The notes beneath the pieces were generated by a model. It ran no database searches, was not told the DNA's origin, and was given only the letters and a program-made list of their open reading frames with translations. Positions 21,082 to 62,207 of a stretch of 64,000 bases of DNA are shown here, piece after piece (the stretch's first letter is position 1; each line of letters opens with the position of its first letter). This stretch comes from an uncultured Elusimicrobia bacterium (GTDB lineage: Bacteria > Elusimicrobiota > Elusimicrobia > 2-01-FULL-59-12), in assembly GCA_963702895.1 (NCBI GenBank), contig OY969767.1, forward strand, positions 1,792,001 through 1,856,000. Direction: 5' to 3'. The translations under genes were made by a program, and so were the position numbers.

Positions 21082-21201
21082 AAGGGTCGCACTCCCGGGG
21101 CAGGACTCGGGCGCCACACATCAGGCGCCCGCCCGACCGTCGTGTGTCGGGCGAACCTGCAACCCTGCGAGGATGTTCTTCAATGCACGTCGGCCATTGC
21201 C
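21082..21201. repeat. ~120-bp direct repeat containing a tRNA-Asn 3' fragment plus trailer (second copy 21394-21513)
   Basis: Two near-identical copies 312 bp apart. They match the variable loop, T-arm, acceptor and trailer of the tRNA at 21715-21755 once a 44-nt insert is removed. Confidence 0.95.
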
Positions 21202-21381
21202 GCTTTTTAGATACTTTTCACGTTTAAGCGCTTCGTGAAGAGTCGGCCAGGGTTCCTTGAAGACCAACTGATAGGTGCGCTTGTTAGTCTTGTGTTCTGC
21301 TAATCGACGAATAAGATCTTCGGTTAAACCAGTATAGAGCTTGCCCGTTTTCTGACACCGAAGGATATAGATCCAGTACAT
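21121..21381 (-). CDS. Small GIY-YIG nuclease (tandem copy 2)
   Basis: MYWIYILRC..LYTGLT..RRLAEH..ALKREKYLKSGNGR, 86 aa. Confidence 0.88.
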   Translation of the reverse strand: MYWIYILRCQKTGKLYTGLTEDLIRRLAEHKTNKRTYQLVFKEPWPTLHEALKREKYLKSGNGRRALKNILAGLQVRPTHDGRAGA

Positions 21382-21432
21382 TTCAAAACACTGAAGGGTC
21401 GCACTCCCGGGGCAGGACTCGGGCGCCACACG

Positions 21433-21693
21433 TCAGGCGCCCGCCCGACCGTCGTGTGTCGGGCGAACCTGCAACCCTGCGAGGATGTTCTTCAATGCAC
21501 GTCGGCCATTGCCAGACTTTAGATACGCTTCTCGGCGCTGTGCTTCGGATTTGCTCGTACGAGCTTCCTTGTGGACTAACTCGTAGTATGGCTTCTTGAC
21601 TCTATGTTCGGCAAGACGTCGGTCTAAGTTTTCGGCGAAACCGACATACAACTTGTGAGTACCTTTACACCGAAGAATATAAACCCAGTACAT
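21433..21693 (-). CDS. Small GIY-YIG nuclease (tandem copy 1)
   Basis: MYWVYILRC..LYVGFA..RRLAEH..AQRREAYLKSGNGR, 86 aa. Confidence 0.88.
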   Translation of the reverse strand: MYWVYILRCKGTHKLYVGFAENLDRRLAEHRVKKPYYELVHKEARTSKSEAQRREAYLKSGNGRRALKNILAGLQVRPTHDGRAGA

Positions 21694-21724
21694 TCCTAGA
21701 GTGTCTAGAGAGTAAAGGGTCGCA

Positions 21725-21796
21725 CTCCCGGGGCAGGACTCGAACCTGCAACCCTCCCGTTAACAGCGGGATGCTCCACCATTGAGCTACCCGGGA
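21725..21796 (-). tRNA. tRNA-Asn(GTT), CCA not encoded
   Basis: Cloverleaf TCCCGGG-TA-GCTC..GAGC-A-TCCCG-CTGTTAA-CGGGA-GGGTT-GCAGG-TTCGAGT-CCTGC-CCCGGGA-G. Confidence 0.97.
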
Positions 21797-21823
21797 GTGC
21801 GACCCTCATTGTCATTCTATCTT

Positions 21824-22018
21824 GGCAGGACTCGGGCGCCACACTACAGGCGCCCGCCCGCCTGTTGTCTGGCGGGCGAACCTGCAACCCTCCCGTTAAC
21901 AGCGGGATGCTCCACCATTGTCCGCCACTACGACTATGGCGGATCCGCCGAAGCCGCAGTGGCGGAAGCTCCGCCACACTTCAGGCGGATGCGCCTGCCT
22001 TGTGGCGCATACCCGGGA
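21824..22018 (-). pseudogene. tRNA-Asn copy interrupted by three twin-hairpin inserts and missing most of the 3' acceptor strand
   Basis: Removing 21834-21877, 21921-21966 and 21970-22009 restores the adjacent tRNA sequence exactly. Confidence 0.9.
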
Positions 22019-22243
22019 GTGCGACCCTCAAAGTCATTCTATCTTGGCAGGACTCGGGCGCCAGGCGCTAACCCGTTAGGCTATGATTGTATCTTGGCTT
22101 TTAAGCTTTGAGGGGTGATTGTAGAAAAAATGTTGATTTCTCCACAAAAACCGGGGGCCCATAAATCATGGAGGCCTATTGGGAGTGGGAATTTAGCCTC
22201 TTGGTCTATAGCAAGCACGAGGAAGATAAGACATAAACATGGT

Positions 22244-22492
22244 ATGCAAAGACAATCTTGTTTGCGGTGTCACGGACATTTACAGGCGAAAAGCGTAGAG
22301 CATCCCTACTGGAACGGCTCGAAGCTTGTGGCGCTCATTGAGGACGTTCCCTCACTCGTCTGTGAGACCTGCGGATTTCAGCACTTCGAGGAGAACGTCG
22401 AATCCAGCCTTCAGACCCTGGTCCAAGACTACATTAAAATGGGGACCCTGTTCCCCATTCCGAAAACGTCTTACCGAAATCTGTCGTCCTAA
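22244..22492 (+). CDS. YgiT-type zinc finger protein
   Basis: CLRC ... IEDVPSLVCETCG. Confidence 0.8.
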   Translation: MQRQSCLRCHGHLQAKSVEHPYWNGSKLVALIEDVPSLVCETCGFQHFEENVESSLQTLVQDYIKMGTLFPIPKTSYRNLSS

Positions 22493-22495
22493 ATT

Positions 22496-22528
22496 CCAAA
22501 CCCGCGGCGATCCTATGAAAGGCAGTGC
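22496..22528. repeat. Solo end of the MITE at 2269-2538
   Basis: ccaaacccgcggcgatcctatgaaaggcag, ending next to TTA between convergent stop codons. Confidence 0.75.
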
Positions 22529-24730
22529 TTAGAGGGATTCGGCTTTCGTGCGGATCGCTTCGATTTGGGGGACGAGCAAGCGTCGGCCCATTTTTTCGAT
22601 CACCCAATTCATCGTGCGTCCGGTGGGCACGAGGTTGACGTGGAACGCCATGCGAGATTCGGCGGTGACAGGGTCCGAGGTGATCTGAAACGAACCTCTC
22701 AGGCTCTCAAAGTCTCCGGCAATCCGCTCAAACTGAAGGGCATGTTCTTGTGGGTGCTCCATCACACGCAGATGGAGATTGACCTTGAAGACAAAGAACA
22801 TGAACCGCGTCAAATAGACCGCATGCACAATGGTCGATGCCCCGTCCTGCCCTTCCCGTTCGCTCGCCAGCATATCGGGAACGAACTGCTTGAGGTGGTC
22901 ATAGCCCGTAACGATTTCCCAGATCTTCTGAGGGCTGGCGCGGCTGGTGGCTTGAACCACGAAGATCCGTTGGCGGCCAGAACCCGTTTCCATCCGGCAA
23001 TCGACAGCGCTCCCCTTGAGGGGCGCTCGAGCCGGCGCGGCTTTTTCATCCTTGGCAGGCGTCGCGACCTTCTTGGCTTCCGTAAGGCGCGCTGCGCTTT
23101 GGCCTGATGGGACGGTCGCGGACAATGGATCGGAACCCAGGCGCGGATCGTGGGTCAGCTTCTTGTGAACGAGCGCCAAGCCATAGGCCTGCGCCACACG
23201 CGAAAGAGCCGCCGTCGTGTAGAGCTTGGCGTATTGCCGCACCACCGTATCCAAGGCGAGAGGCGAAGCGCCCGGCTGGGCCGCCATCACCAGTTCTTCG
23301 GTGTCTTTGGCGATGGGACGGCGTTCCTCGGGAGGAATGCGGGACTCATCAAAGAACGCATGCAAGGTGTTCGAACGGACCTGGTCTTGGCCTCCTGGCT
23401 CCACCGAGCCTCGCTCAAGGTCCGCTGAAAACGCAAAGTGGAGCGGTCGTTTGGGCGCCCCATCCGGCTCACGGCCACCGGAGAAGCTTAGACGCACCTC
23501 ATAGAGGGGGCCCTCCATCAAGGAAGCGCTCCAGTCGAGGTCGTTATAGAGATAGACTCTCTTCCCTGTTTCGAAAGCGGTGGAATACTCCCGGTCACGA
23601 AGGATTTGCATCAAAATCTCCGTGTTTCGATCCATGGTTCGCAGGCCGCCGTAAATGCGGTTTCGCTGGACCTGGCGAATGGCCTGTTCCTCTTGCGAGG
23701 TCCATAAACTTTTCTCCGCGCGCCGCTTGGTCGTAACCGGCGATTGAAGAGGTGCCGAGTGCCGGCGCTGCAAGGGGGCAGCCTCCGCGATCACGTGAAA
23801 GGGCACTTCTTCGGTTTTCGTGTCAAGTTCAGGTGACGGCGTGTGTGCTTCTGTCTTGGGGGCCGCGCTTGCGCCCGTCAAGGCAACTGGCGGAACAACG
23901 GACTTCGCTTTGGCGCGAGAGGCCTTCGAAGACCTCTTGCGCTTGGCCTTAAGATGGGTGGAGCTCCCCCTGGAAGGCACAGGGGACAAGGGCGGCGCCA
24001 CCAGGACAGGGGTTGGTGGAACAACGTGGCGCTTCTTCCATGATCGCACTCCCAAGAAGGACCCTCCGGCCAATATCGCAAGACCCGCGACCAGCGCAAT
24101 CAGTTTGGGTAGCGGGATATCCACGGTGGGGGCCCCCGGTACGCTGACATCGATCCTGCCTCGATCCTGCGATACGGGCATCGAGGCCGATGCCTTGGGT
24201 GGCTCGTGTCGTGCTTCGACCGGAGTGGCTTTTTCTTCGACAATCATGGAAGGTGGAGCACCTTTCAAAACGTCCCCACATTTCATACAGAGAGCCACAT
24301 CGCGTGGGTTCCTAAAGCCGCACGCTTCACAAAGATTCCGAAGCTCAAGCTCTGGGCTGCTGGACGCCGCGCGAGCGGGTCCCGGAGAAACCGCGGGCAC
24401 CTCCGGAGACGGATCACTTTTCTTGGCCTCGAGGGTTGAGCCGAGCCAGTCCAAGTTGGGCTCTGAAAGAGTCACTTCTTCGATGATGGGAACGGGCGGC
24501 GGAGGCTCCCATTGGGGGGCCGCGTTACCTGCGTCAAGAGCGAAGGAATTCGGATGCGGCGGGGAGAGCAAATAGGATTTGATCTCAATCACTTCATCCG
24601 CCATGCGCCAGACTTGAGCGCCTTCTTCGCAGACCTGTGTCAAGAGATTAAACCCTGACACTTTGCTCAAGGATGCAACGTCCATTGGACCCTGGACTTG
24701 ATCGCCGATGTAGACCCAAAATCGAGGCAT
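22529..24730 (-). CDS. Membrane-anchored protein: GYF_2-like, zinc ribbon, TM, and C-terminal SRPBCC/START domain
   Basis: FWVY..QVQGP..W N-terminus; CEACG..CMKCG; one TM; IWEIVTGYDHLKQFVP. Confidence 0.7.
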   Translation of the reverse strand: MPRFWVYIGDQVQGPMDVASLSKVSGFNLLTQVCEEGAQVWRMADEVIEIKSYLLSPPHPNSFALDAGNAAPQWEPPPPVPIIEEVTLSEPNLDWLGSTLEAKKSDPSPEVPAVSPGPARAASSSPELELRNLCEACGFRNPRDVALCMKCGDVLKGAPPSMIVEEKATPVEARHEPPKASASMPVSQDRGRIDVSVPGAPTVDIPLPKLIALVAGLAILAGGSFLGVRSWKKRHVVPPTPVLVAPPLSPVPSRGSSTHLKAKRKRSSKASRAKAKSVVPPVALTGASAAPKTEAHTPSPELDTKTEEVPFHVIAEAAPLQRRHSAPLQSPVTTKRRAEKSLWTSQEEQAIRQVQRNRIYGGLRTMDRNTEILMQILRDREYSTAFETGKRVYLYNDLDWSASLMEGPLYEVRLSFSGGREPDGAPKRPLHFAFSADLERGSVEPGGQDQVRSNTLHAFFDESRIPPEERRPIAKDTEELVMAAQPGASPLALDTVVRQYAKLYTTAALSRVAQAYGLALVHKKLTHDPRLGSDPLSATVPSGQSAARLTEAKKVATPAKDEKAAPARAPLKGSAVDCRMETGSGRQRIFVVQATSRASPQKIWEIVTGYDHLKQFVPDMLASEREGQDGASTIVHAVYLTRFMFFVFKVNLHLRVMEHPQEHALQFERIAGDFESLRGSFQITSDPVTAESRMAFHVNLVPTGRTMNWVIEKMGRRLLVPQIEAIRTKAESL

Positions 24731-24807
24731 GTCGATTGCACCAAGTCTAGAGCGTGTTTTAGCGATTTTAAAGGGGTTTTTTACATCCCACCTCTGGACT
24801 TGACTGT

Positions 24808-24957
24808 CCCCTCTCCCGACGGGAGGCGGGAGAGGGCGGTCGCCAGTCGTCTAGCGACCGGGTGAGGGCTCGGCGTGCCCTCATCCTAGCCTTCTCCCAC
24901 CTTCGGCGGGAGAAGGGAGATTTTTTTCTACCTCTCCCACGTTCCGCGGGAGAGGGA
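24808..24957. repeat. REP-like family A (ccctctccc..gggagaggg..gggtgaggg); also at 49296-49520 and 54444-54550
   Basis: Three intergenic clusters of related GC-rich hairpins. Confidence 0.8.
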
Positions 24958-25005
24958 TCACATGGGCATCCGAATCATCCAGTTGAGTCTTGCGGCAGAA
25001 GCCTT

Positions 25006-28535: not shown

Positions 28536-29302
28536 CGTTTGACCCGCATCGCAAGCCTGTCCGCAAGTTCCGGCATCCAGCGGTGCAGACGTAACGCCCA
28601 CGAGACGTACCAGGGGTAATAAAGTTCCCTTTGCCGACGCCGCAGCGCACCGAGGATCGCCCTGGCCATCTGCTCCGGAGACTTGCCAAGACGGTCTCGG
28701 AGCGTTCCCCTCTGCACGAAAGGCGAGGTCATGTCCGTTCGGATATAGCCAGGAAAAACACTCAGGACATGGATGCCGGTGCCTTGGAGTTCCTGCTGGA
28801 GGGCTTCCGAATAACCAGCCAAGGCAAACTTGGAAACGCTGTAAGAAGCCGACGTCGCGGTTCCCCATCGGCCATAAGTCGAGGAGATATTCACGATCGC
28901 GCCCTGTCGAGCCGCCCGCATCGCCGGAAGGACCGCTTGCGTGACCCGGACAGCGCTCATGACGTTGTTTTCAAAAGCCCGGGCATACTCCTCGGGCAAA
29001 GCCTCGCGCAGGGGTGTGTTGAAGTTGGAGCCCGCATTATTGATCAAAAGCGTAATGTTGCCCCAGCGTGATTGGACCTCGGCCAGGACCTCGGCGATAT
29101 GCGCCGGATCGGCCGCGTTGCCTGCCCTGGCCAAAATCTTGCCGGACCCCGTCCCGGAAGCGATGGAATGGCACGTTTCTTCGAGGATCTCTTTCCGACG
29201 ACCCGTCAGGAGTACGCTTGCGCCTTCGCGATAGAGCTCCTCGGCTAAGGCTCGGCCGATGCCGGTCCCCCCGCCTGTAATCCAAGCCAGCGTTATGGAC
29301 AT
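28532..29302 (-). CDS. Short-chain dehydrogenase/reductase
   Basis: TGGGTGIG, NNAG, NISS and YSVSK. Confidence 0.93.
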   Translation of the reverse strand: MSITLAWITGGGTGIGRALAEELYREGASVLLTGRRKEILEETCHSIASGTGSGKILARAGNAADPAHIAEVLAEVQSRWGNITLLINNAGSNFNTPLREALPEEYARAFENNVMSAVRVTQAVLPAMRAARQGAIVNISSTYGRWGTATSASYSVSKFALAGYSEALQQELQGTGIHVLSVFPGYIRTDMTSPFVQRGTLRDRLGKSPEQMARAILGALRRRQRELYYPWYVSWALRLHRWMPELADRLAMRVKR

Positions 29303-41132: not shown

Positions 41133-43253
41133 TTAAGCAGCTTTGTTGGAGGCGGCCGGAGCTGCGATTTTTTCCATCACAAAGAAGAATTTGCTGCCTT
41201 TGCCGACCTCAGACTCCACCTGGATCGTGCTGTTGTGGGCCTCCACAATTCCCTTGCTGAAGGATAGACCGATACCGAAGCCGACCGCGCGGTCTTCGGA
41301 TTTGACCTGCTCAAATTTCCCAAAGAGTTTCTGGAGCGCCTCCGGGGGGATGCCGCGTCCATTGTCCTGAACGGCGATTTCCACGCCCGCGGGCACGGCG
41401 CGGGCGATGATCTTGACCCAGCCGCCTTCCATCGTATACTTGATGGCGTTTCCGGTGATGTTTTCCACGACACGTTCCATTAAGGAGGCGTCCGCCCGGA
41501 CCCAAAGCGTCGGATCATCGCACTCCGCGGTGAGGGTAATCTTTTTGGCCAGCGCCTGGAACTTCAGGTCCCCGGCGATTTTCTTGACCATCGCCTGGAC
41601 CTGCATCGGCACGGGATGGATGGCCAGCTTCCCGGCTCTTAAGCGCGCCAGGTTCAAGATGGTCTCCACGAGGCTCAAGGCCCGCTTGGCGGACTGCTTG
41701 GCGGATCCCACGAGTGTCCCCAGCTCCGCGTTGCTTTCCGGCACCTGGATTTCTCCCAATCCCAGATAGCCGATGGTCGCCGCCAGCGGCGTCCTCAAAT
41801 CGTGCGTGATGCCGTTAAAGAAGTCTTCCTTCATCTTGTCCAGCTCTTTGTCCTGCGTGATGTCATGGACCACGATCATCACGCCGAGCGCTCGGCCGTC
41901 CTCGGTATGGACCTGTTGGGCGATCACGCGCGCCCACCGCGAACGCCCGTGGACAGGAAACTCAAATTCGGCGGATTCGCTCTGCTTGGCATGGGAAAGG
42001 ACCGGCTCCAGAAGATCGGTCCACGGAGGGTACTCTTGCAGGGACTGCCAGGCCTTCTCAAAATCCGCTTTGCCGTGCCCTGCCACATCCATGGCCCATT
42101 GCCGGGAGGGCGCATTCGAAAAGAGAAGCTGGCCCTGGGCATCGACCATGACGATACCGTCTTGAATCGTAAAGAGGAGCGCTTCCACTTTCGACTTCTC
42201 ATCGATGATCTTTTCCACCTGCATCGCGTTATAGACCTGGAGCTCCTGCGTCATCTGATTAAAGGCCTTCCCTAAGGCTCGAAACTCCTCGAGCCCAAAG
42301 TTTTCCGGCACTTTAATATGGAATTCACGCTTGGACACGTGCCCGACGCCGCTCGCCAGTTTCGTAATGGGAGAGCTGATGTGGTGCAGCCAAAAATACC
42401 CGAAGAGGCCGATGCCGAGCACGCTTACGATCACCCAAAAGTAGGCCTGCGATTTTAATTTGGCGATTTTGGCGTAGGCCTCGGCTTGAGGCTGCGCGGA
42501 GAGGATAAACCAGCCGGCGCTCTCCACCCACTGGCCGGCCCCGACCGATGGCACGCCGCTCGGATTTTCAAACTCTCCCATCCAGATCTCGCGACCTTCC
42601 AAACGCTCACGGAAGAACTTCCACGCAGGCAGGAGCGCCTGGCCCACGCGGGTGTTTTGGGAGTCTCCCGCGATGGTCCCGGCGCTATCGATGAGCCAGA
42701 TATAACCCTGCTCGCCAGCTTGCTGGTCATAAAGAATTCTCTTCAAGGATTCCCAGCGGACCGACACATACAACCATTCGCCGCTCTCCAGAGGATAGAG
42801 GACGTCAAAAAAGGACCGGCCGTCCCGCTCGTAGACCGCGCCCGTATCCGCATGGCGGTCCGTGATCACGCTGAGAAATAATTTGTTAGCAGACAGGTCC
42901 AGGGGTGAACGGAACTCACGGATTTTCGTGTCGTAGGCCTTGGCGAGCTCACGGCCCCCAGCATTGAGCAAGGCGACACAAGCAAAATCATCATTGGAGA
43001 GGAGCGCATTGTTCAAGATCGCGATCTGCTCTCCCCACTGATGGCTCCTGGCGAGCAGCGGCGCAAAGGCCAAACGCATGTTGAGCTGCTGGAAATAGCT
43101 GCTCGTGTTCAAGGACAGGGCGTTGACAATGTGACGATGGAGATCGTAGATCTGCGCTTTGGATTCGCGCGTGTATTGGATGATTTTCACGCACGTCATG
43201 GTGACGGGAACGACGACGATCGCTAGGATAATGAGAAACCATCGGCTACGCAC
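41133..43253 (-). CDS. Membrane sensor histidine kinase (Cache-like, HAMP, PAS, HisKA, HATPase)
   Basis: Two TM helices, THDLRTPL, NAIKY, DNGRG and GFGIGL. GTG start overlaps the upstream stop. Confidence 0.92.
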   Translation of the reverse strand: MRSRWFLIILAIVVVPVTMTCVKIIQYTRESKAQIYDLHRHIVNALSLNTSSYFQQLNMRLAFAPLLARSHQWGEQIAILNNALLSNDDFACVALLNAGGRELAKAYDTKIREFRSPLDLSANKLFLSVITDRHADTGAVYERDGRSFFDVLYPLESGEWLYVSVRWESLKRILYDQQAGEQGYIWLIDSAGTIAGDSQNTRVGQALLPAWKFFRERLEGREIWMGEFENPSGVPSVGAGQWVESAGWFILSAQPQAEAYAKIAKLKSQAYFWVIVSVLGIGLFGYFWLHHISSPITKLASGVGHVSKREFHIKVPENFGLEEFRALGKAFNQMTQELQVYNAMQVEKIIDEKSKVEALLFTIQDGIVMVDAQGQLLFSNAPSRQWAMDVAGHGKADFEKAWQSLQEYPPWTDLLEPVLSHAKQSESAEFEFPVHGRSRWARVIAQQVHTEDGRALGVMIVVHDITQDKELDKMKEDFFNGITHDLRTPLAATIGYLGLGEIQVPESNAELGTLVGSAKQSAKRALSLVETILNLARLRAGKLAIHPVPMQVQAMVKKIAGDLKFQALAKKITLTAECDDPTLWVRADASLMERVVENITGNAIKYTMEGGWVKIIARAVPAGVEIAVQDNGRGIPPEALQKLFGKFEQVKSEDRAVGFGIGLSFSKGIVEAHNSTIQVESEVGKGSKFFFVMEKIAAPAASNKAA

Positions 43254-43890
43254 GGCGTTTCTCCTTACGGGGGTTGAGCAGCACAATTTCAATGCGGCGG
43301 TTCAGTTCCCGGTTATCCTTCGAAATATTGGGCACCTTCGGCCGATAGGGACCATAGCCGCGGGCGGAGATCCGGGAGGGGTCGATCCCGGACTGCGTTA
43401 AAAAATGGATGACGCTAAAGGAGCGCGCCACGGAAAGCTCCCAATTGGAACGGTAGGCGGACCGGCGCCCCGGCGGGAGATCGTCCGTGTGGCCTTCCAC
43501 CACGAGCTCCCCGGGAAAGGCCCGCAATTCAGGGGCCAGTTTCTTGAGCAGCACCATGGCCTCGGGCTGCAGTTCCGCTCGGCCCGACGTGAACATGAGC
43601 CCGTCCGGCAGCTGAATATTGACGCGCTCCGCCTGGACGTCGAGCGCCGCCAATTTGTTCAGACGCTGCACCATGCCCACTTGAGCCTCTTGCGGGGCTC
43701 TGAGCTGCTGAAAGCGTCTTTCTTCCCAAGACACTTTTTTCGCCCAGAGCCGGTGCGCGAAGAGCATCAAAAAAAAGATCATGAGGATCGTCATGAAATC
43801 GCTAAAGGAGACGATCCAGATATGAGAGCTTTCGTCTTCGTGAGCTTCCAGGCTGCTGAAATCTTCCTCGGAATCGCGTACATTACTCAT
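43246..43890 (-). CDS. motB: MotB-like stator subunit 2
   Basis: WIVSFSDFMTILMIFF TM with the conserved Asp; OmpA-like EGHTD, NWELS.AR and NRRIEI. Confidence 0.9.
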   Translation of the reverse strand: MSNVRDSEEDFSSLEAHEDESSHIWIVSFSDFMTILMIFFLMLFAHRLWAKKVSWEERRFQQLRAPQEAQVGMVQRLNKLAALDVQAERVNIQLPDGLMFTSGRAELQPEAMVLLKKLAPELRAFPGELVVEGHTDDLPPGRRSAYRSNWELSVARSFSVIHFLTQSGIDPSRISARGYGPYRPKVPNISKDNRELNRRIEIVLLNPRKEKRRA

Positions 43891-44518
43891 AGCGTAAGAT
43901 GCCGATCTCGATACGGCGGTTGGCGGCCCGGTGCTCGGGCGTGTCATTGGGAAGCTTGGGGTGGAACTCACCAAAAGCGGCGACGCCGAGGCGCTCCGGG
44001 GGAATGCCTTCCGCCGCGATCAAGTACTGCACCACGGACATCGCCCGCGACAGCGACAACTCCCAGTTGGACGCATAGCGGCTCCCGGGCCGAAGGGGCG
44101 TGTTGTCCGTGTGCCCTTCCACAAGGACGGTGTAGGGAACGCGCTTAATGGCCGTGGCCACGGTATGCAGGACCAGCTGGCTCTCGGCCCGGAGCTGCCC
44201 GGCGCCTGTCTCAAAAAGGATTTCGTCAGGAAGCGCCATTTGCAGGCGGTCTTCCCGCGCGACGACCGGAGCGGTCTGGTCCGAGACCATCTTCAAGTCG
44301 CGCGTGATGTCGTCGTACCAGGGGGCGGCTTTCTTCGAATACTCCATGCGCGACCTCATGGAGGCGATCGCGTCCGGAATCGCGTCGGGCCCAAAAAAGG
44401 ACAGCGCGTAAAGACTCAGGAAGAGCAGGAAGAGGTTCGTGATGAGATCGGAATAGATGGTCAGCCAGATAAACTGGTTGCGGCGCTCCACGAAGACAGC
44501 GGAAAGCTTATCAATCAT
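43883..44518 (-). CDS. motB: MotB-like stator subunit 1
   Basis: WLTIYSDLITNLFLLF TM with the conserved Asp; EGHTD, NWELS.RA and NRRIEI. Confidence 0.9.
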   Translation of the reverse strand: MIDKLSAVFVERRNQFIWLTIYSDLITNLFLLFLSLYALSFFGPDAIPDAIASMRSRMEYSKKAAPWYDDITRDLKMVSDQTAPVVAREDRLQMALPDEILFETGAGQLRAESQLVLHTVATAIKRVPYTVLVEGHTDNTPLRPGSRYASNWELSLSRAMSVVQYLIAAEGIPPERLGVAAFGEFHPKLPNDTPEHRAANRRIEIGILRYE

Positions 44519-44577
44519 GGTTCGACTCGTTTTTCGGCTCGCTCACCATGACCCTGAGCGACACAGGAGTCGAAGGG

Positions 44578-45387
44578 TCATGCGGCCCTTCTGCCAGTGG
44601 ACGCCTGGGCGGTGCTCGGCGTGGTTTGGAGTTGCTCACGCTTGTGCGCGTCCGCAAACGTTCGCAGTTTACGCAGCGTGATGACGGGGACCTCGTTTTG
44701 CTGGATGCATTCCACGCCTTCAATAATGAGTTGCTTGAGATAGATCTCTTCCTGCGAATACACGTTGAGCTTGCCCGCGATCGGCAGGAAAAGAAAATTG
44801 GCGCTAAAGATTCCATAGAACGTCGCGGTCATCGCGACCGCCATCGCGGCGCCAATCGTTTTGGGGTCGGAGAGGGTCATCAAGACTTGGACCACCCCCA
44901 CGAGGGTCCCGAGGAGCCCAAAGATGGGCGCGTACGAGGCGGCGCTTCGGAACACATTGGACACCATCACATGGCGGTCACGGGCAAAACGGATTTCCTT
45001 GAGCAAATTACTGCGGACAATGTCCGCCGGGACGCCGTCGAGCACCATGCGCAGGCCGTCCACGAGATAGGTGATCCTGATTTGCGCTAAATCCGCCTCC
45101 AGGCTTTCCATACCCTGACGACGGGCTTTCTCGGAGAGCGCGACGATCGTCCGGATCACGAGGGTCGTGTCCGGCCTGTCTCCCGGGAAGAGAAAGATGA
45201 GGACCGCGCGCGCGGCGGGAAAAATGATGGCGCTCGGGTAGGTGAGGAGGATCGCGCCGAGCGTCCCCCCAAAAACCAGGAGGATCGCGTGCGTGTTCAG
45301 AATGAGCCCGACAGAATTCCCCTGAACCAGGACGTATCCGACGCTCCCCAGTCCAATCAGATAGCCGAGCGGCGTCATCCAATCCAT
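44578..45387 (-). CDS. motA: MotA/PomA stator subunit
   Basis: VFGGT, KARRQGMESLE, APIFGLLGTLVG, ATFYG and ANFLFLP. Confidence 0.93.
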   Translation of the reverse strand: MDWMTPLGYLIGLGSVGYVLVQGNSVGLILNTHAILLVFGGTLGAILLTYPSAIIFPAARAVLIFLFPGDRPDTTLVIRTIVALSEKARRQGMESLEADLAQIRITYLVDGLRMVLDGVPADIVRSNLLKEIRFARDRHVMVSNVFRSAASYAPIFGLLGTLVGVVQVLMTLSDPKTIGAAMAVAMTATFYGIFSANFLFLPIAGKLNVYSQEEIYLKQLIIEGVECIQQNEVPVITLRKLRTFADAHKREQLQTTPSTAQASTGRRAA

Positions 45388-46895
45388 TATTTACGCTCCG
45401 GCAAGGCGATGCGGCCGTCGACGAGGAGTCTCCGGCCGGTCTCCTGCATTTTCATTTTGGCATCCGCAATGGCCGTGCGGTCCTCCGCGGCCAAATCGAG
45501 TTCCTGCTGGAGGATTTCGCGAATCGCGACCGGGAGCCTCCTTAATATAGCTTCCCGAAAATCGGGTTTCTCGTCCCGCAAGGCCAGGGCCGTGGTCGGA
45601 TAACCGACTTCCTGGACCAAGAGCCTTAGCGCCCCCGCGCTGATGACCCCCAAGTCCTCAATAAAAAATGTCTTTCGCCGCAGGGCCTGGGCCAAGAGGG
45701 GCGACTCTTGATTAAGCGACCCTAAAAGGGTCCTTTGGGTCTGCGGCTGGGTGAGTTGATAGACCGATTGGATCCATTCCTCTCCCCCCACCAAGTAAGG
45801 GAGCTTGGACTTCACGTGTTCCTCCAGCTCCTTGACAACATCCGGCGGGACTTCGCGGGCCTGGCTGAGCTCCCGCATGATGGTGGTCTGAACAGAAGCG
45901 TCGAGCGAGCCGAGGACGCGGCTCGCCCACTCGGCAGGCAGGTAAGCCAAGATCAGGGCACACTGCGCCGGCGAGAGGCCGCGGCAAAGAATGGGGAGCT
46001 TGTTGAGCTGGTCCTCTCGAATAAACCGGAACGGGCGGGCGCCGGCCTCTTCGGGATCGAGAGAGCCATTGCCGTTGTTCCCCAAAGGGTACATTCCCCC
46101 GTTGGCGGCAGCGGCGGCGTTGGTTTTGCTTGGCGCGTTCGAAACCGTATAAGCGGCTTGCTCTCCCACGCGGGGCAGCACCGCGAGCAGCCTATTGAGA
46201 AAGGCGCGCATGGGGCCAAAGAGGAACGCGATAAAGAAGACAAACACCGCGACGAGCGCCCCGGCGATCATGAGGACGGGGGCGTTGGCCCGGTTCAAGA
46301 GGCTTCCCCAAAACGATTTCTCCCCGCCCGCGGCCTGGATTTTCCCTTCGGTGGTCGCCGGCTGCAGGAGGTTGGAGTTTTGAACCTGCATTTCGTCCCC
46401 GCGCAGAGGATTGAATGGGATGCTGGCCGTGATCACTTCGCGGATATTGCGGATCTGTTCCGCGGTCACGTCCCGGGCGACCAGAATCGAGATCGAGATT
46501 TTTTTAACGAGCGTCTCCGCGGAAAAAGCGCTCACCGTCGTTTCGCTCTGCTCTTCCGGATTGGCCACAAACTCCTTTTTTCCCGGCACGCCCGGCAGCA
46601 CGTATTGGTTTTGGCCCAAGAGGGTGTTGCCGCCCCGCCGCGCGGTGGTGGATTGGACCGAAGGACGCTCACGGTTTTCCATCTCCACTTTGACCGTCAC
46701 CAGATAACTGCTCGGCGGAAGGGTCTTGGCGAGGATCCCTTCGATCCGGTTCTGGATCTGGGTCTCAATCTGGATCTGTTCTTGTTCATACTTGGCCATG
46801 ACCCAGGCCGAAGCCGCCCCGATCAGACACAAGCTCGCCACGAACCCGAAGAGGCGCGCGCTAAGTCGTCTGGACCATGGAAGATTCATGTTCAT
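45387..46895 (-). CDS. FliF C-terminal ring domain fused via a TM helix to FliG middle and C-terminal domains
   Basis: IQNRIEGIL..VTVKVE and VKKISISILV..IREVITASIPFNPLRGD (FliF_C-like); TM; PAQCALILAYL (FliG_M-like); GG..FFIEDL..ALAL..GRI (FliG_C-like). Confidence 0.8.
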   Translation of the reverse strand: MNMNLPWSRRLSARLFGFVASLCLIGAASAWVMAKYEQEQIQIETQIQNRIEGILAKTLPPSSYLVTVKVEMENRERPSVQSTTARRGGNTLLGQNQYVLPGVPGKKEFVANPEEQSETTVSAFSAETLVKKISISILVARDVTAEQIRNIREVITASIPFNPLRGDEMQVQNSNLLQPATTEGKIQAAGGEKSFWGSLLNRANAPVLMIAGALVAVFVFFIAFLFGPMRAFLNRLLAVLPRVGEQAAYTVSNAPSKTNAAAAANGGMYPLGNNGNGSLDPEEAGARPFRFIREDQLNKLPILCRGLSPAQCALILAYLPAEWASRVLGSLDASVQTTIMRELSQAREVPPDVVKELEEHVKSKLPYLVGGEEWIQSVYQLTQPQTQRTLLGSLNQESPLLAQALRRKTFFIEDLGVISAGALRLLVQEVGYPTTALALRDEKPDFREAILRRLPVAIREILQQELDLAAEDRTAIADAKMKMQETGRRLLVDGRIALPERK

Positions 46896-52314: not shown

Positions 52315-52745
52315 CGTCATCCCCCGCGGTCTACCCTATGTCATCCCCCGCGGTGTCTATTTTTCGTCATCCCCCCCGGTCGTAAGGGGGGGATCCATCA
52401 TGTTTTGTCCGTCGATGATAGACCCCGGCTGACGACCGCCGGGGTGACGTCAACGCCGGGATGACGTCAATAACGTGATGCCGTCATCCCCGCGGTCTAC
52501 CTTACGTCATCCCCCGCGGTGTCTATTTTTCGTCATCCCCCCCGGTCGTAAGGGGGGGATCCATCATGTTTTGTCCGTCGATGATAGACCCCGGCTGACG
52601 ACCGCCGGGGTGACGTCAACGCCGGGATGACGTCAATAACGTGATGCCGTCATCCCCGCGGTCTACCTTACGTCATCCCCCGCGGGTGTCAGCGGGGGAC
52701 GCCACACTACAGGCGTCCGACTGTAGTGTGTCGGATCCATCGTGA
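52315..52745. repeat. Tandem ~166-bp units of family-B palindromes
   Basis: gtcatcccccgcgg recurs at 52340, 52506 and 52672 with near-identical intervening sequence. Confidence 0.9.
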
Positions 52746-53915: not shown

Positions 53916-53931
53916 CTTTGATTTTGGCGGG

Positions 53932-57500: not shown

Positions 57501-57695
57501 CGGTTTGCCGACGGTCGAGGTGAGCTTGTAGCTCGCCGAGGTCCCGCGGGCCGATCCCGCGCTTGTCACGTCGCTGCGCCGGATGCGGTAGTTCGTCGAC
57601 GACATATCGCTTCCGGCGAAAACGGGGAAAACGCAGAACGAACAAAGCAGAGACACGAGAGCAAAGAAACGAAAGCAGAGAGCTCTGCTTTGCAT
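54582..57695 (-). CDS. Large exported multi-FnIII protein with a CHU_C-type C-terminal domain
   Basis: Several FnIII repeats (L.W..Y..RVRA) and C-terminal IITPNGDGWND..WDGKD..GIYVYQ. The start could be 57695 or 57857. Confidence 0.85.
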   Translation of the reverse strand: MQSRALCFRFFALVSLLCSFCVFPVFAGSDMSSTNYRIRRSDVTSAGSARGTSASYKLTSTVGKPGGSLFTGTTYFVYSGFANLVSHPDSIEDLAVITGPSTGTLVLSWTAPTAFGSNGQATSYSARYKNTPFADEVAFVSAPIYTNTWSPLPPGGLEAKTAGNLAFNTTYYFAIKGADAAGNTGYLSNNAGAATLTDEVPDVTITDVGQSSVTLAWTGLGAAGSQGYLVHASTLPSFSGTVRSSATSDTFQTSLTVFSLRRGKLTYLRVGGLNWNDVPYFTTWVSTITLPGPPPATPTFTAVYASSISLTWGGVTPDVGYSAEASTGASFTPIARSSVTTDVALSTLTIQSLMANATYYLRVGSLYDDTTAYANTVPASTITVAAVPTGGAFDNVSPSSITASWSGSINAAGTNFRVELSSISALGASTATATTSDVTATLTALNQDTTYWARVQALGWAGADSPYLFIGSSITGTITPLLIPTLTGFPDVQRTSVTVAWGLTGGPQIVYDVDLAPADPFGTHVTSNVVAGPTTAVLGLNVNAQYTARVRAHSLTSGRVSGWSNYRSTYTWAEAPTVLSTTGVSSTYVWLTWNGGANPPVTLYSIERSTDGSTFTQAGAIRATAYQDYTVSAGTAYVYRVRAISEGGVPTAYTNTVLVMTAGVASVPKRPLGLWGERVDLGGGTYQMTYRWSRVTQREDGTALINLAGYQVYTSSSVHLPRALWTLLTTVATEEWQGVALASDVKYYCLRAIDTSARVSAWGQIIDDTSDIHHFFMGPDNITHAQMPQAVANVLRGSQNNYGADLWMGVDEVTSEETGRVLRSVRFAIENGVTGTDVTDLLFNPASLRVVIGYTVMGGHVVAGAPEGRGGESAMGRTIWGAPARAPVITAENAAEQLSLFWFNGLEWVKTTGLVNTADQTVSATGSRAGSFQIRAATHAPGVTLTRVYPRIITPNGDGWNDKAIFQFDNPELLPLSGKVYDITGAYVASLVAGPNPDSSLAWDGKDGGGKAVPGGIYVYQVDVGGTPETGTIVVAR

Positions 57696-58145
57696 GCTTT
57701 GCTTTCGTCGGTCTGCTCTGCGTGCTCTGCTTTGATGGCTGAACGCAAAGATCTCAGAGCAGAAGATCCAAAGCAGAGACACGAAAGCAAAGAAACGAAA
57801 GCAGAGCTTTCTGCTCTCGTTTCTCTGCTCTCGTTTCTCTGCTCTGACCTTGGTCATTTCGTCCTCTCCGTCTCTGCGCAAAGGGTCTCGTCGCACAACA
57901 GCAGTAACGGCAGCGCAAAGCGATCAGAGAAAAGCGCAGAGCTCTCAGCTTGACGCTGTTCGCTTCTCGCTGCTCGCTGCCGTGGCTTATCCGATGATCG
58001 CTCGTCTCTCATCTCTCGTCTCTCGTTTCTCTGCTCTCGTTTCTCTGCTCTCGCTTCTCCGCTCTCGTTTCTCTGCTTTCGTTTCTCTGCTCTGACCTTT
58101 GTCATTTCGTCCTCTCCATCCCCGCCCAAAGGGTCCCAGCGCACT
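57640..58145. repeat. CT-rich 7-mer repeat family E (ctctcgt/ttctctg); also at 51366-51421, 60750-60960 and 63180-63285
   Basis: Pyrimidine tracts. The shared end motif ctctgctctgacctt..tcat.tc.tcctctcc occurs at ~57837, ~58085 and ~63243. Confidence 0.8.
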
Positions 58146-58231
58146 TTGATGAAAACTGAGAACTGAAGGACGCCTTATCCAAAAAGCGTATAATGATCTC
58201 GCTTCAAAAATATCCATAGGAGACATGATCC

Positions 58232-58483
58232 ATGCAGAATAACATGACCGCGCGTCTTGAACACCTCGCCAAACTGCGTCACGAGCCCCCGCAACATGTG
58301 ATTGCGCAGGCCATCGAGATCGGTGTGACGCGTCTCTACACAGAATCCATACTGGCGAATTATCTGAAAAAACGCCTCTCTCGGCGCCGCGCCATCCAAG
58401 CCGTTGGCCTGGAAGCCGTTCAAATCGCTGAAGCGCAGCATTCCGCCGTGCATAAGGATATTGCCTGGGGTGTAAGTGCCTAG
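58232..58483 (+). CDS. Putative antitoxin (UPF0175-like)
   Basis: Small ORF with GGAG RBS overlapping a PIN gene. Confidence 0.65.
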   Translation: MQNNMTARLEHLAKLRHEPPQHVIAQAIEIGVTRLYTESILANYLKKRLSRRRAIQAVGLEAVQIAEAQHSAVHKDIAWGVSA

Positions 58484-58967
58484 ATTTGTTGTTGATACAG
58501 GCCCTTTCATCCACTTGGAACAGATCGGCCATCTTCCACTGCTCGCCAGGCTCCCTGCTCTTCTTGTTCCTTCCGGTGTGGTATCCGAGCTCAGAGACAC
58601 GCGTCTTCGCACCATCATCGAAAGCTGGCCGCACACGCAAGTCTTGACCCTCGCACCCATGGCCAAGAAGCTCTCCTCGCTCAAGCGGATGGGCTTGGAC
58701 CGCGGTGAAATCGAATGCCTGAGGCTGGCGCTTGATCATGCTCCCTGCATTTTCTTGACCGATGATTTGGCCGCCAGGCGGTCTGCCGAAAGACTGTCCA
58801 TCGAAGTTCATGGAACCGTCGGCCTGATTGCCTACGCCGCCAGACACCGGTGGCTGAGCCTTCCGCAAGCGGAGAAAGCCCTCCACCAGCTCTACGAAAA
58901 GAGCTCGCTCTTCATCACCTTCGAGATTATCGACAGCGCGATCCTTGCTTTGCGCCATCGGCTCTAG
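58476..58967 (+). CDS. PIN-domain toxin (DUF3368-like)
   Basis: VVDTGP, V.SEL, LDRGE, LTDD.AAR and HGTVGL. Confidence 0.85.
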   Translation: MPRFVVDTGPFIHLEQIGHLPLLARLPALLVPSGVVSELRDTRLRTIIESWPHTQVLTLAPMAKKLSSLKRMGLDRGEIECLRLALDHAPCIFLTDDLAARRSAERLSIEVHGTVGLIAYAARHRWLSLPQAEKALHQLYEKSSLFITFEIIDSAILALRHRL

Positions 58968-59078
58968 TCTCTCCGATTGGTTCGGTCGGCCTTCCCCAGA
59001 AAGAACGTCGGAAAGCCTCCCTCGCCATGACGGCATAAGGCTCCATTTCTGTGACGTATCTGCTAAAATGAGCTCGTT

Positions 59079-59459
59079 ATGGGCGTTTTCAAATCGCAAA
59101 TTACCCTTCGCAATCCGGTTCACCCGAAACTGAAATCTCTGACGGTTTCCGCGTTGGTCGACACTGGCGCTCTGCATTTGTGTCTTCCCGAACATGTGGC
59201 GCTCCAGCTGGAACTCCGGGAACTGGAGAAGCGCGAGGTGACGCTCGCGGATGGCAAGAAACACTTGGCCCCTTATATGGGTCCTATTGAGGTTTCTTTC
59301 GAGAACCGCCGCTGTTTCGTCGGGGCTATGATCTTGGGGGACGAACCTCTCTTGGGAGCGATCCCTTTGGAAGATATGGATCTGATCATCGATCCCGGCA
59401 AGCGTCGACTGACCGTCAACCCCGAAAATCCCAACATTCCCGGCTCGCTCGCTAAATAA
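59079..59459 (+). CDS. Clan AA aspartic protease
   Basis: ALVDTGA, LADG and LLGAIPLEDMDL. Confidence 0.9.
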   Translation: MGVFKSQITLRNPVHPKLKSLTVSALVDTGALHLCLPEHVALQLELRELEKREVTLADGKKHLAPYMGPIEVSFENRRCFVGAMILGDEPLLGAIPLEDMDLIIDPGKRRLTVNPENPNIPGSLAK

Positions 59460-59586
59460 CATCGTTTCGTTGCGTCCTTTCCGTGCTGTCGACAACAAGG
59501 GGACGGTCGCCAGAAATTTGGAGACTGTTCCCAAGCCGTAGCGGCACGACGGCCCCGCTGTTCGGTGTCTCCGCCGCGCGCTGTCT

Positions 59587-59701
59587 CCGTCCCGCACACG
59601 CTTCCCGCCACTGAGACACAGGCGGGCCCGCCTTGCAGTAGTGGCGGGCGCGTGTAGGGACTGTCCCTGCCTCGGCCGCAGGCCGATGGCCGGGACGCCG
59701 T
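59587..59701. repeat. Family F repeat (..gggactgtccc..); copies at 61838-61952 and 62382-62452
   Basis: Three near-identical copies; the third lacks the 45-nt twin-hairpin insert. Confidence 0.9.
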
Positions 59702-59866
59702 TCGGCATATCCGCTCTGAGCCCAAGATGTACCACAGGCCCTCCGAAACGTCGCGCGTTTACATGAATCGTCCTCATGACGCCGCCCGCCGTCTAAAATG
59801 GATCTCTTGACATCGCCCTTGTTTCGGCCTAATATAATGTAACACACTGTAACAAAGGAGAGAACC

Positions 59867-60115
59867 ATGCGCACCGACCGCCTGAGCTATACGACCACCA
59901 TCTCTCTGCCTCCGCCGCTCTACCGGGAAATCCTCAAGCGCGCCAAAGCGAGCGCCATGAGCACCTCCGAGCTCCTGCGGGAGGCGTTCCGGCGCTATGT
60001 CCGCGAAGAGCGTGAATGGGAAGAGCTCCTGTCCTATGGCCGTTCCAGGGCGAGGAAAAGTGGCGTCCTGACAGACCGAGACGTTGAACGGCTGATCGAT
60101 GCGTCCCGAAAGTAA
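59867..60115 (+). CDS. Ribbon-helix-helix (CopG) antitoxin
   Basis: TISLP..SELLREAFRRY; AAGGAG RBS. Confidence 0.85.
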   Translation: MRTDRLSYTTTISLPPPLYREILKRAKASAMSTSELLREAFRRYVREEREWEELLSYGRSRARKSGVLTDRDVERLIDASRK

Positions 60116-60536
60116 ACGCCTTCGCGTTGTCCTCGATACGAACGTCCTCTTTTCCGCCGTCGCGTTTCGCAAAAACAGCCCGTCTTCCTTGATCTTGAAG
60201 CTGGCGCGCGCCCGTAAATTCGAGGGGTTTCTTTCACGCTTCATCTTGAGCGAACTGCTCAAGAATCTGGAACACAAGGCCTTCTGGGACGAAGAGGCGC
60301 TCTTGAGGCTCCGCAAGCGGCTGCGCATGACGTTCATCATCATCGACCCCCGCCTGCGGATCAACGTCATCCAACGCGTCGAAGCGGACAACCGTATCCT
60401 GGAATGCGCCGCAGCCGCCAAAGCCGACGTCTTAGTCACCGGAGACCTCCGTGATATCCGCCCCTTGGGCCATTCCCAGGGGACGGAAATTCTGACCCCC
60501 AAAGAATTTCTTCAAAAATATTTCCCTCACGCTTAG
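60099..60536 (+). CDS. PIN-domain toxin
   Basis: VVLDTNVLFSA, DNRILECA and LVTGD. Confidence 0.9.
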   Translation: MRPESKRLRVVLDTNVLFSAVAFRKNSPSSLILKLARARKFEGFLSRFILSELLKNLEHKAFWDEEALLRLRKRLRMTFIIIDPRLRINVIQRVEADNRILECAAAAKADVLVTGDLRDIRPLGHSQGTEILTPKEFLQKYFPHA

Positions 60537-61058
60537 TGTTGGTATCGGAGCAACGGGGTATCGGGGTAACGCCCGCCACTGAATCCTGGCGGGCCCGCCA
60601 AAGATGTTGTGGCGGGGTGTAACGGAGTATCGGGGTAACGGAGTATCGGGGTAACGTCGTAACGGCGTCGACGTGACTCCGGCACTCCGAAACTCCGCTA
60701 CTCCGATGCTCCGATACGGCCGTTTCGCTCTTCACTCTTTTTCCCTCACTCATCTCTCGTCTCTCATCTCTCGTTTCTCTGCTCTCGTTTCTCTGCTCTC
60801 GTTTCTCTGCTCTCGCTTCTCATCTCTGCTCGCTCTTCGCTGCTCGCTTTGCGCTGCCGTGCCGTAAGTCCATGATGTGCCACAGGCCCTCCAAAGACCG
60901 ATCCATTCTCTCCTCTTTCAGTTCTCACTTCTCGCCTTTCTGCTCTCTGGTCTCTGCCCTCTTGAAAGCTTGAAAGCTCGAGGGCAGAAAGAAGAGAACT
61001 GAAAACTGAGAGACACCGTCTTCGTCCCTCATCTTTCGTCTATGGTATACTGCTTCCC

Positions 61059-61292
61059 ATGAAGCGCATTTCCATTAATCCTCGTATTCGCTTCGGCAAG
61101 CCCTGCATCAAAGGGACGCGGATTGCCGTGGTCGATATTTTGAATCTCGTTTCTGCCGGTTACTCCGTTCATGAAATTCCGGGCCAGCTTCCCCGCCTGA
61201 CGAGGAAAGACGTGCTCGCCGCCCTGGCTTTTGCCAGCCGTCTCTCCGAAGAACCCACGAAGATCTTCGCCCGCTCCAGCGCCTCGAGATAG
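61059..61292 (+). CDS. DUF433 antitoxin
   Basis: INPRIRFGKPCIKGTRI..DVLAAL. Confidence 0.88.
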   Translation: MKRISINPRIRFGKPCIKGTRIAVVDILNLVSAGYSVHEIPGQLPRLTRKDVLAALAFASRLSEEPTKIFARSSASR

Positions 61293-61295
61293 CCG

Positions 61296-61652
61296 ATGCG
61301 TCTTTTTGCAGATCAGTGCGTGCATGCTGATCTGGTCAAGGCGCTTCGTCAGCAGGGCCACCGCATACAGCTGGCGGCTGAAGCAGGACTCGCCCGAGCG
61401 GATGATGACGCGATCTTTCACCATGCCGTGAAAACCTCGCAGATTCTTCTGACCATGGACAAAGACTTCGGCAATATTGTGCGATTTGATGTTCGGCACT
61501 GCCGGGGCATCGTGCTGATCGACATCGATCGGATGTCCAGAAGCTTTCTGATCCGCCGTGCTCTGGATTTTTTCAGCCGGACCGCTGAAGAGCGCCTCCA
61601 GGGATCGCTCTGGATGATCGGCATCAAAGGCATCAAAAACTGGCCGCGGTAA
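61296..61652 (+). CDS. DUF5615 PIN-like toxin
   Basis: MRLFADQCV, DDDAI and LLTMDKDF. Confidence 0.88.
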   Translation: MRLFADQCVHADLVKALRQQGHRIQLAAEAGLARADDDAIFHHAVKTSQILLTMDKDFGNIVRFDVRHCRGIVLIDIDRMSRSFLIRRALDFFSRTAEERLQGSLWMIGIKGIKNWPR

Positions 61653-62207
61653 CGCACCGGTCTTCCCTTTGTGATTTGCAACACCTTGGGGACCGTCCCC
61701 AAGCCGTAAAGGGCCGTCTTTTGCTGTCTCTGCCTCATGCTGCCTCCGCCGTTCTGGCCATTCTGCCGTCCTGGCTTTTCCGCCGTTCGGCTGATCCGCT
61801 GTTTGGTACCGAAGATCCGCCGTATGGTACTGGAGATCCGTCCCACACACGCTTCCCGCCACTGAGACACAGGCGGGCCCGCCTTGCAGTAGTGGCGGGC
61901 GCGTGTAGGGACTGTCCCTGCCTCGGCCGCAGGCCGATGGCCGGGACGCCGTACGGAACCGAGGATCCGCCGTTCGCTTGATCAATCCATGATATGCCAC
62001 ATGCCCTCCGAAGAATGGCGGCACTGCAGAACGGCGGCATTCCAGAACGTCGGCACTCCAGAGTGGCAGCGTGTGGTAATTTCATAAGAACCTCCACTCC
62101 CCGCCGCTCGGGTCAGCCGCTGTTCTGGTAAGCCGCCGTTCGGGTTTGCCGCCTCTCGTTTCACTAATCCATGATATACCACATGCCCTCCGAGTAGCGC
62201 TCCATAC

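Follow-up and report, generated by a model that had tools for sequence, protein, structure and literature searches.

Twin-hairpin inserts of Elusimicrobiota whose middle bases are an inverted copy of the duplicated target bases

We analysed a stretch of 64,000 nucleotides from an uncultured Elusimicrobia bacterium (NCBI GenBank assembly GCA_963702895.1, contig OY969767.1, positions 1,792,001 to 1,856,000 of the forward strand; hereafter the window, with coordinates counted from its first base), where an original prediction made from the letters alone had placed nine copies of a small element of two adjacent hairpins. This element, which we call the doublet, is a real, order-wide twin-hairpin insert, and its junctions have the general form L-X-[hairpin]-revcomp(X)-[hairpin]-X-R, in which X stands for 0-3 target bases that are present at both edges of the insert and, as their reverse complement, between the two hairpins. 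Each doublet consists of two units placed head to head, a unit being a hairpin with a 6-bp stem of the form NN-CG[C/A]C-loop-G[G/T]CG-N'N'. The source genome (G000) measures 2.72 Mb in one contig and is 98% complete; it was compared throughout with G007, which belongs to another genus of the same order.

Doublets in the source genome

A scan of the whole of G000 returned 101 candidate doublets, of which 96 were kept as the curated set; the five that were dropped had only one canonical core and one correctly oriented loop, and one doublet was re-parsed by hand. Adjacent hairpins with CG[C/A]C..G[G/T]CG cores did not occur in either of two order-4 Markov genomes (0 and 0), and a motif-free scan found 199 adjacent hairpin pairs in G000 compared to 58 and 53 in these Markov genomes. 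Under a looser pattern G000 holds 387 units, many of them degenerate, nested or single and lying besides the curated doublets, as well as a related family of 49 copies sharing one fixed stem mismatch. Most doublets of G000 (88/96) lie outside the genes called by a simple gene finder. The minimum-energy DNA fold was the two hairpins in 145 of 231 doublets, and the Rfam matches in the window were to tRNA only, with none to the doublet.

The loops fall into two classes, a short one of 8-9 nt with the form A[C/G]AC-[A/G/T]-N-C-N and a long one of 10-11 nt with the form A[C/T]T-NN-[G/A/T]-N-C-NN(N). The two halves of a doublet were class-matched in 96/96 cases in G000 (60 short, 36 long) and in 21/21 cases in G007, both genomes having been scanned without a bias towards matched pairs; the scans of the larger collections sought matched pairs and are no test of this point. 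A single mixed-class pair, with a broken stem, was met at a metagenome locus (L236).

The junction follows the target

The 5′ end of each unit abuts the 3′ end of a flank, and the distance between the two cores ranges from 2 to 6 bases. At a distance of 5 or 6, the one or two bases of X form no part of the 6-bp stems; at 4 the join is blunt; at 2 or 3 the stems borrow X. The rule is independently testable only at the core distances of 5 and 6 bases, which leave a spacer of 1-2 bases, and there it was obeyed in 32/37 doublets of G000 and 14/15 of G007, and in 55/57 metagenome doublets with intact stems among the matches listed. When 241 insertions were pooled and de-duplicated, agreement was found in 81/86 and 21/24 cases, that is in 102 of the 110 with such a spacer. 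The middle equalled the reverse complement of the left X in 84/86, compared to a mean of 48.6 and a maximum of 57 in 2000 shuffles of the middles, and in 22/24 of the cases where X is other than CG.

In the 2- and 3-base classes the stem filter itself imposes the rule, so that the evidence there is the empty allele: a join that allows for the duplication was found elsewhere in G000 for 19/21, and a join without duplication for 1/21. Taking all non-blunt doublets of G000 together, the predicted empty allele was found elsewhere for 45/58 and the no-duplication join for 3/58; these 58 of the 96 doublets are the ones that carry a flanking duplication. The bases seen as X are CG, CA/TG, GG, C/G, TC/GA, TT/AA, A/T and CCG, the three-base junction (CCG, CGG, CCG) occurring in the family with the mismatched stem. 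The spacer tracks the target both in sequence and in length, as seen for CG, CA/TG and GG.

Copies in the window

All nine predicted copies are present at their places, and their head-to-head orientation, their cores, the covariation of the stems and the complementary loops at 52698 were confirmed. The copies and the sites they occupy are as follows.

21110..21151: short-loop doublet filling the T-loop of a tRNA-Asn tail fragment, with CG between the hairpins and the duplicated CG at either edge; net gain of 44 bases
21422..21463: doublet, short-loop class, in the second tail fragment at the same site as that at 21110, from which it differs only at loop position 5
21724..21797, minus strand: intact tRNA-Asn(GTT), T-loop unfilled
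21825..22018, minus strand: dead upstream tRNA-Asn copy, from 5′ end to T-arm, with three doublets
21835..21876: short-loop doublet that fills the T-loop of the dead tRNA copy and duplicates CG
21921..21966: long-loop doublet with a blunt join, lying in the D-arm of this dead copy
21970..22009: short-loop doublet close to the 5′ end of this dead copy, readable as blunt or as a one-base duplication
22057..22068: putative loop-less remnant of a unit in a third T-arm stub
52698..52735: short-loop doublet placed at the foot of an SRM/CGTC-like hairpin repeat, with GA duplicated at its edges, TC between the hairpins and a net gain of 36 bases
59604..59648: long-loop doublet set within the loop of a hairpin that belongs to a host repeat
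60572..60616: long-loop doublet joined blunt within a tandem array of 8-mers
61855..61899: doublet identical to that at 59604, found where the host repeat occurs a second time
62390..62409: the site filled at 59604 and 61855 in its empty form

Taking the element out gives back the T-loop of tRNA-Asn (its empty 20-mer stands at 21733), the host repeat (its empty 20-mer stands at 62390) and the 8-mer period, as had been claimed. The accompanying claim of insertion without target duplication proved wrong for four of the nine copies, since those at 21110, 21422 and 21835 duplicate CG and that at 52698 duplicates GA; the span of 44 nt given earlier for the T-loop copies includes one copy of the duplicated CG. 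In all four the two middle bases are the reverse complement of the duplicated ones. The other five read as blunt, those at 59604, 61855 and 21970 being equally readable as one-base duplications. At 52698 the stems borrow the duplicated bases, and 12 matching empty sites exist in G000; the site of the doublet at 21970 is also filled in G007, with other loops.

Variation of the loops

The loops, first described as drifting, vary at fixed positions and with no free drift, and there is little linkage of loop positions with each other or with the stems. Among 133 insertions, 127 doublets are distinct, and five of the six repeats fall within one target family of G000; among 266 halves, 209 are distinct, and identical halves recur between genomes. 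Doublets differ by 6.29 within and 6.11 between genomes (G000, G007 and two records of the GTDB scan), and no genome-specific doublet lineages were seen. Even tandem copies with identical flanks may hold different doublets (G000 1909505 and 1909587). On the written strand of the short loops, A is the commonest base at positions 5, 6 and 8 (134, 176 and 169 of 372).

Targets

A unit lies within 160 bases downstream of 27/48 tRNA calls in G000 and 18/41 in G007. The T-arms of tRNA tails that stand outside intact genes are filled in 20/21 cases in G000 and 11/12 in G007 (31/33 together), counting four stem pairs as sufficient for a filled and five for an empty T-arm; the count drops six false pattern matches and one doubtful row, leaves uncounted four unfilled T-arm-like sequences with no tRNA match, and includes tandem copies that are not independent. 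In 39 cases the short class duplicates the two T-loop bases that we take to be C56 and R57 in tRNA numbering, and in 11 the long class joins blunt between them; two short doublets are blunt there. The displaced tails are often unlike the resident tRNA, and 20 of the 52 T-loop insertions stand between T-stem strands with at least one mispair, which suits either the joining of unrelated ends or the filling of att-like remnants. An empty version of a conserved tRNA-Met tail was found in none of 121 genomes, of which only one was from the same family.

Further targets are SRM/CGTC-like hairpin repeats, which are a main one, 8-mer arrays, terminator-like hairpins and older units. The view that the element occurs only inside tRNA copies and other repeats was mostly right, but it is also found in terminator-like hairpins, in RNAs that we take to be riboswitch-like and, in frame, in polX. 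As regards the suggested immunisation of the cut site by the insert, nested insertions show that a site already filled can take a further one. Composite repeats keep a constant inner doublet while their outer loops vary, so copying and conversion among repeats occur too. The preference for hairpin loops in general is weak (loop fraction 0.31-0.36 near the site compared to 0.23-0.27 in intergenic controls, 111 sites).

Two candidate sources of the arms were rejected: tRNA 3′ ends as the source of the first arm, as no tRNA ends in the common AG-CGCC stem, and templating of the stem dinucleotide by the target's own tail, as no offset stands out save for a side effect of the T-loops.

G000 has about 190 SRM-like hairpins (an example is at 52320-52745 of the window), with loops of 4 nt or 8-9 nt and covarying stems. 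Their long loops follow an AC-D-N-C grammar, as does the doublet, and the two may have one common writer. In the polX gene (G000 1902773-1904713, minus strand) an SRM-like repeat stands in frame within the thumb domain and has a doublet nested in it; another insert in this gene, of low complexity, is missing from the G007 protein. Lone units (G000 93189, 694334, 974491 and 1701265) mostly have AGAC-NN-CT loops that extend the stem, and they replace the loops of host hairpins, including the anticodon arms of dead tRNA copies. The T-arm alleles of tRNA-Pro(TGG) are swapped between G000 1652275 and G007 C8:67512, the resident arm of one being the displaced tail of the other, and tRNA-Arg(CCG) has a similar swap between the genera. 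At G000 813419, 817351 and 1666702 the T-loops of tRNA tails hold a different, longer insert with GGGACAGTCCC-like motifs, perhaps a third element family. A short protein that by eye resembles a tyrosine recombinase (G000 368266-368826) is 80% identical to the product of a non-syntenic G007 gene near an unfilled tRNA tail.

Mini GIY-YIG genes and surroundings

The original prediction had proposed a role for small GIY-YIG proteins, two of which are encoded beside the tRNA-Asn fragments.

21121..21381, minus strand: mini GIY-YIG gene, 86 aa from its ATG; the frame crosses the T-arm fragment and stops in a loop of the doublet at 21110
21433..21693, minus strand: another mini GIY-YIG gene of 86 aa, 71% identical to the first, whose frame ends in a loop of the doublet at 21422

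G007 also has this set of tRNA-Asn, mini GIY-YIG and filled fragments, and two of the sites hold different doublets there. The evidence for the proposed role is circumstantial: mini GIY-YIG genes at tRNA loci have doublets on their flanks, but most doublets are far from any such gene and GIY-YIG genes occur in 5/5 genomes tested. No relative of the mini GIY-YIG was found in viral contigs.

Among the surroundings, a long AGAT tetranucleotide run (G000 1700707-1700810) lies beside a tRNA-Ala and a mini GIY-YIG gene. The window region 58200-64000 is dense in small toxin-antitoxin-like genes (PIN, RHH, DUF5615, TumE) set between 7/8-mer arrays and hairpin repeats. A FliG-like gene (45387-46895) adjoins MotA/MotB genes (43246-45387), with no obvious flagellar operon in the window.

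Distribution

The doublet is confined to one lineage. The short class was found in 5/10 genomes of the same family and in 0/30 others, and the long class in 9/12 genomes of the order (Elusimicrobiota). Under looser patterns G004, covered by 393 kb of sequence, and G010 were also positive, which brings the total to 11/12 and leaves G009 without doublets. A scan of GTDB gave 33 loci, 32 of them in Elusimicrobiota records, with one odd match in a Chromatiales bin, and metagenomes gave at least 123 loci, at least 94 of which have protein matches to G000. Viral contigs gave no match to either class. A motif-free T-loop pattern run over 401 genomes of the phylum returned mostly noise, with real doublets only in family f1 among the matches listed.

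A possible route to the junction

The form of the junction suggests that the doublet is a scar whose halves were made one by one, each broken 3′ end receiving a hairpin whose tail copies the overhang by folding back before the tails anneal; we give this reading an even chance of being right. A nuclease would open the two strands of a tRNA loop or hairpin repeat, the two cuts lying X (0-3 bases) apart. One stereotyped hairpin would then be placed onto each 3′ end, its 5′ end facing the flank in keeping with the polarity described above, and its loop would be set by a fixed programme with variable positions. The 3′ end of the hairpin would fold back and copy the overhang, giving the revcomp(X) seen in the middle, and the tails would anneal through X and revcomp(X), or join blunt, with fill-in leading to L-X-H1-revcomp(X)-H2-X-R. 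In the borrowed-stem classes, a 5′ overhang that was filled in first would give the same form. Two paralogous activities, one making 8-9-nt and one making 10-11-nt loops, would each treat both ends of a break. Hits in working tRNA genes would survive only where a spare tRNA end is supplied, leaving filled tails beside intact genes, and filled host repeats would spread onward by copying and gene conversion. Candidates are the mini GIY-YIG proteins for cutting and a family-X polymerase for the fill-in.

Extension of 3′ ends, fold-back and annealing by short homology are also features of V(D)J P nucleotides and of de novo telomere addition. Bacterial group II-like reverse transcriptases (RTs) are known to carry out snap-back synthesis and to join broken ends by microhomology, and G2L4/group II RTs and Pol theta extend 3′ ends that fold back and anneal by very short homology (10.1101/2022.03.14.484287). 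The inserts known from such joining are, in that account, random or copied locally, whereas the doublet is a conserved hairpin of 20-23 nt on both ends and no such RT co-occurs with it. The earlier proposal that the element is written at DNA breaks gains support from the inverted middle that follows the target and from the T-loop insertions between imperfectly pairing T-stem strands; its premise of no duplication was wrong, and no writing enzyme was found. We hold it as a serious possibility, at somewhat under even chances, that this reflects a so far undescribed break-capping system, in which an enzyme would add a programmed, partly randomised hairpin to any DNA 3′ end and snap-back would copy the overhang and join the ends, so that the scar would record the position and stagger of the cut.

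Several results weigh against such half-by-half writing. The two halves of a doublet differ more than random pairs do (2.34 compared to 2.01 +/- 0.06; p = 0.0007 in G000 and 0.003 in G007), and nearest-neighbour distances (2.44) are below those of re-paired controls (2.82 +/- 0.09). At T-loops, the 5′ side has the stem CC in 40/64 halves and the 3′ side has AG, TC or CC in 23, 19 and 18 of 69, and 20/23 doublets with a one-base spacer have one stem pair in common. Halves that are not independent, half types specific to a side and a shared stem pair suit an oriented element that is inherited as a whole. If perfect palindromes tend to be lost, this could explain the unlikeness of the halves but not the side-specific types. 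The same stem mismatch in all 49 copies of one family indicates that the second arm is not always a fold-back copy, and the different staggers left by the two classes at one T-loop site indicate that an outside nuclease alone does not set X.

The enzyme searches, which were profile searches with a loose first look and may miss a divergent enzyme, also speak against it. An RT was found in only 4/12 genomes and in neither G007 nor G001, AEP was absent from G000, Ku and Cas1 were each found in 0/5 genomes, and no template locus for the hairpins was detected. G000 encodes three group II intron RTs and no other kind, and no RT co-distributed with the doublet, a point raised in the original prediction, was found. 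PolX was rejected as a discriminating enzyme, as it is found in 5/5 genomes including the doublet-less G009. Neither the non-syntenic genes common to G000 and G007 (259 by filter) nor the genes flanked by units in both yielded a candidate by eye.

Alternative explanations and known systems

The main rival, which we consider improbable without dismissing it, is that the whole doublet is a non-autonomous single-strand transposon (HUH-type, IS200/IS605- or REPIN-like) moving as a circle H1-revcomp(X)-H2-X, in which the middle would be a guide pairing with target X, the duplication only apparent, and the loops quick to mutate. IS608 picks its cleavage sites through guide bases at the hairpin foot, and its hairpin ends, its foot bases complementary to the target and a polarity compatible with joining of the target 3′-OH to the hairpin 5′ end resemble the doublet (PMC3201880; PMC6006769). 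The left/right asymmetry, the fixed stem pairs within spacer classes and the unlike halves would fit, as would the stem AG, which follows a G in 58/61 short halves and occurs in none of the 66 blunt short halves. Y1 genes are found in 11/12 genomes of the order, but G000 has only an 89-codon Y1 fragment and no intact RAYT, and doublets flank none of the Y1 loci examined, ten in relatives and five in G007, although two lone units lie close to one of them. Rep_trans and Y2 are absent from G000, G005 and G007, with Y2 only in G001. Clonal bursts at unrelated sites are lacking, and CG and CA/TG junctions have halves in common, for which paired changes would be required on every occasion. The range of X is left unexplained, and a guide of 0-2 bases cannot account for T-loop targeting, known guides being tetranucleotides; those of IS608 are, as far as these sources describe them, fixed and 5′ of the hairpin, whereas the pairing bases of the doublet are variable, 0-3 in number and between the hairpins, and no TnpA is found.

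The likeness to REP dimers, BIMEs and REPINs is close, as these are 20-25-nt GC-rich hairpins in inverted dimers, mostly intergenic and with heterodimers favoured, some of them 1-2 bp apart or within other palindromes (PMC3733652; PMC6006769). The doublet differs in having no GT[AG]G or CGTC tag at its foot, the flanks of all 96 being target sequence, and in loops of 8-11 nt with a fixed grammar, a middle and flanks that follow the target and strong targeting of tRNA loops. No full-length tnpA-REP flanked by doublets and no REPtron was found, the G000 fragment being all there is, and a REP doublet with a cognate RAYT, which would have refuted the original prediction, was not found. We do not regard it as a REP/REPIN, since no RAYT, co-distributed RT, Ku, AEP or Cas1 was found.

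Ligation of pre-made single hairpins to break ends, in the manner of adapters cut from older copies with sticky tails chosen by pairing and not synthesised, appears to us quite unlikely. Stem type is associated with the terminal base and the cut side, the recurrence of identical halves across genomes would be expected, and the loop grammar is common to the SRM-like repeats of G000 and the doublets. The Ssn GIY-YIG nucleases, moreover, cut single strands 5′ of cognate hairpins (PMC11893778). However, rare junctions (TT/AA, A/T, GG) and rare compensated core changes would need matching donors, none of which was seen, and there is little linkage between stem and loop position. Ssn-SRM/NTS is nevertheless akin in several respects: the SRM-like hairpins of G000 share the long-loop grammar and are a main target, and two GIY-YIG genes of G000 (543339, 554279) are flanked by SRM-like host repeats, not by a doublet. 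The doublet lacks the upstream CGTCAT motif; it goes in at the SRM hairpin's 3′ foot, whereas the cut made by SsnA is upstream, and no addition of sequence by Ssn is known from the available description (PMC11893778).

Writing of each half by target-primed reverse transcription of a small RNA, with the adenine-specific infidelity of diversity-generating retroelements (DGRs), is highly unlikely. On the opposite strand of the short loop the fixed positions are non-A, positions 5, 6 and 8 vary with A commonest on the written strand, and a DGR RT miscopies about 50% of template adenines (PMC6182149). Adenine-confined variation fits those three positions only, and position 2, the C/A change of the core, the stem dinucleotide and the long class are all misfits; in addition, the RTs of G000 are of group II introns only, G007 and G001 have none, and neither a DGR- or retron-like cognate RT nor a template region was found. 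Finally, an ordinary REP-like dimer with a short duplication and a middle later perfected by palindrome correction, or an assembly artefact, is largely refuted: REP dimers separated by 1-2 bp, and others lying within further palindromes, are on record (PMC3733652), but middle length tracks duplication length over five classes and so is not the product of point corrections, and the presence of the doublet in many separately assembled genomes and metagenomes, of one lineage, excludes an artefact.

Other small elements share single traits. A MITE of a DDE transposon is set apart by the varying duplication length of the doublet, its diversity (127/133 distinct) and the lack of within-genome lineages. 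Remnants of attL/attR at tRNA genes form a further comparison class. In tRNA-gene insertions with long target duplication, an intact tRNA is likewise followed by a short cargo and then by a displaced tail of the tRNA that frequently comes from a different allele (PMC2853133); here the displaced tail nearly always has a doublet in its T-loop, an integrase is lacking, and the cargo amounts to 5-100 bases or to a mini GIY-YIG gene. The double-hairpin elements (DHEs) of Allomyces mitochondria and the GC clusters of yeast are small GC-rich mobile hairpin pairs whose mechanism is open, and DHEs consist, like the doublet, of two adjacent GC-rich hairpins with compensatory changes (PMC2800124; PMC4478555). 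DHEs are, though, reported without the flanking duplications carried by 58/96 doublets, GC clusters have fixed AG/ACT repeats, and the available portions of these reports mention no inverted copy of a duplication for either system (PMC2800124; PMC4478555). A literature search that left out most subscription papers and the supplementary REP tables gave no description of the element or its junction. Provisionally, then, the junction matches no described system, and any newness would lie in its grammar.

Significance

The origin of REP-like repeats, of tRNA-tail debris and of double-hairpin elements is an old open question, and here the junction itself states a testable mechanism, its middle being an inverted copy of the target overhang. 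Were the doublet a single-strand transposon, it would be one of 40 bases with a self-adjusting guide, smaller than those known. If instead ends are capped and joined as proposed, these bacteria would have a form of end joining that works without Ku/LigD or an RT and writes a defined sequence, leaving a readable record of past cuts that might serve as a break-tagging tool.

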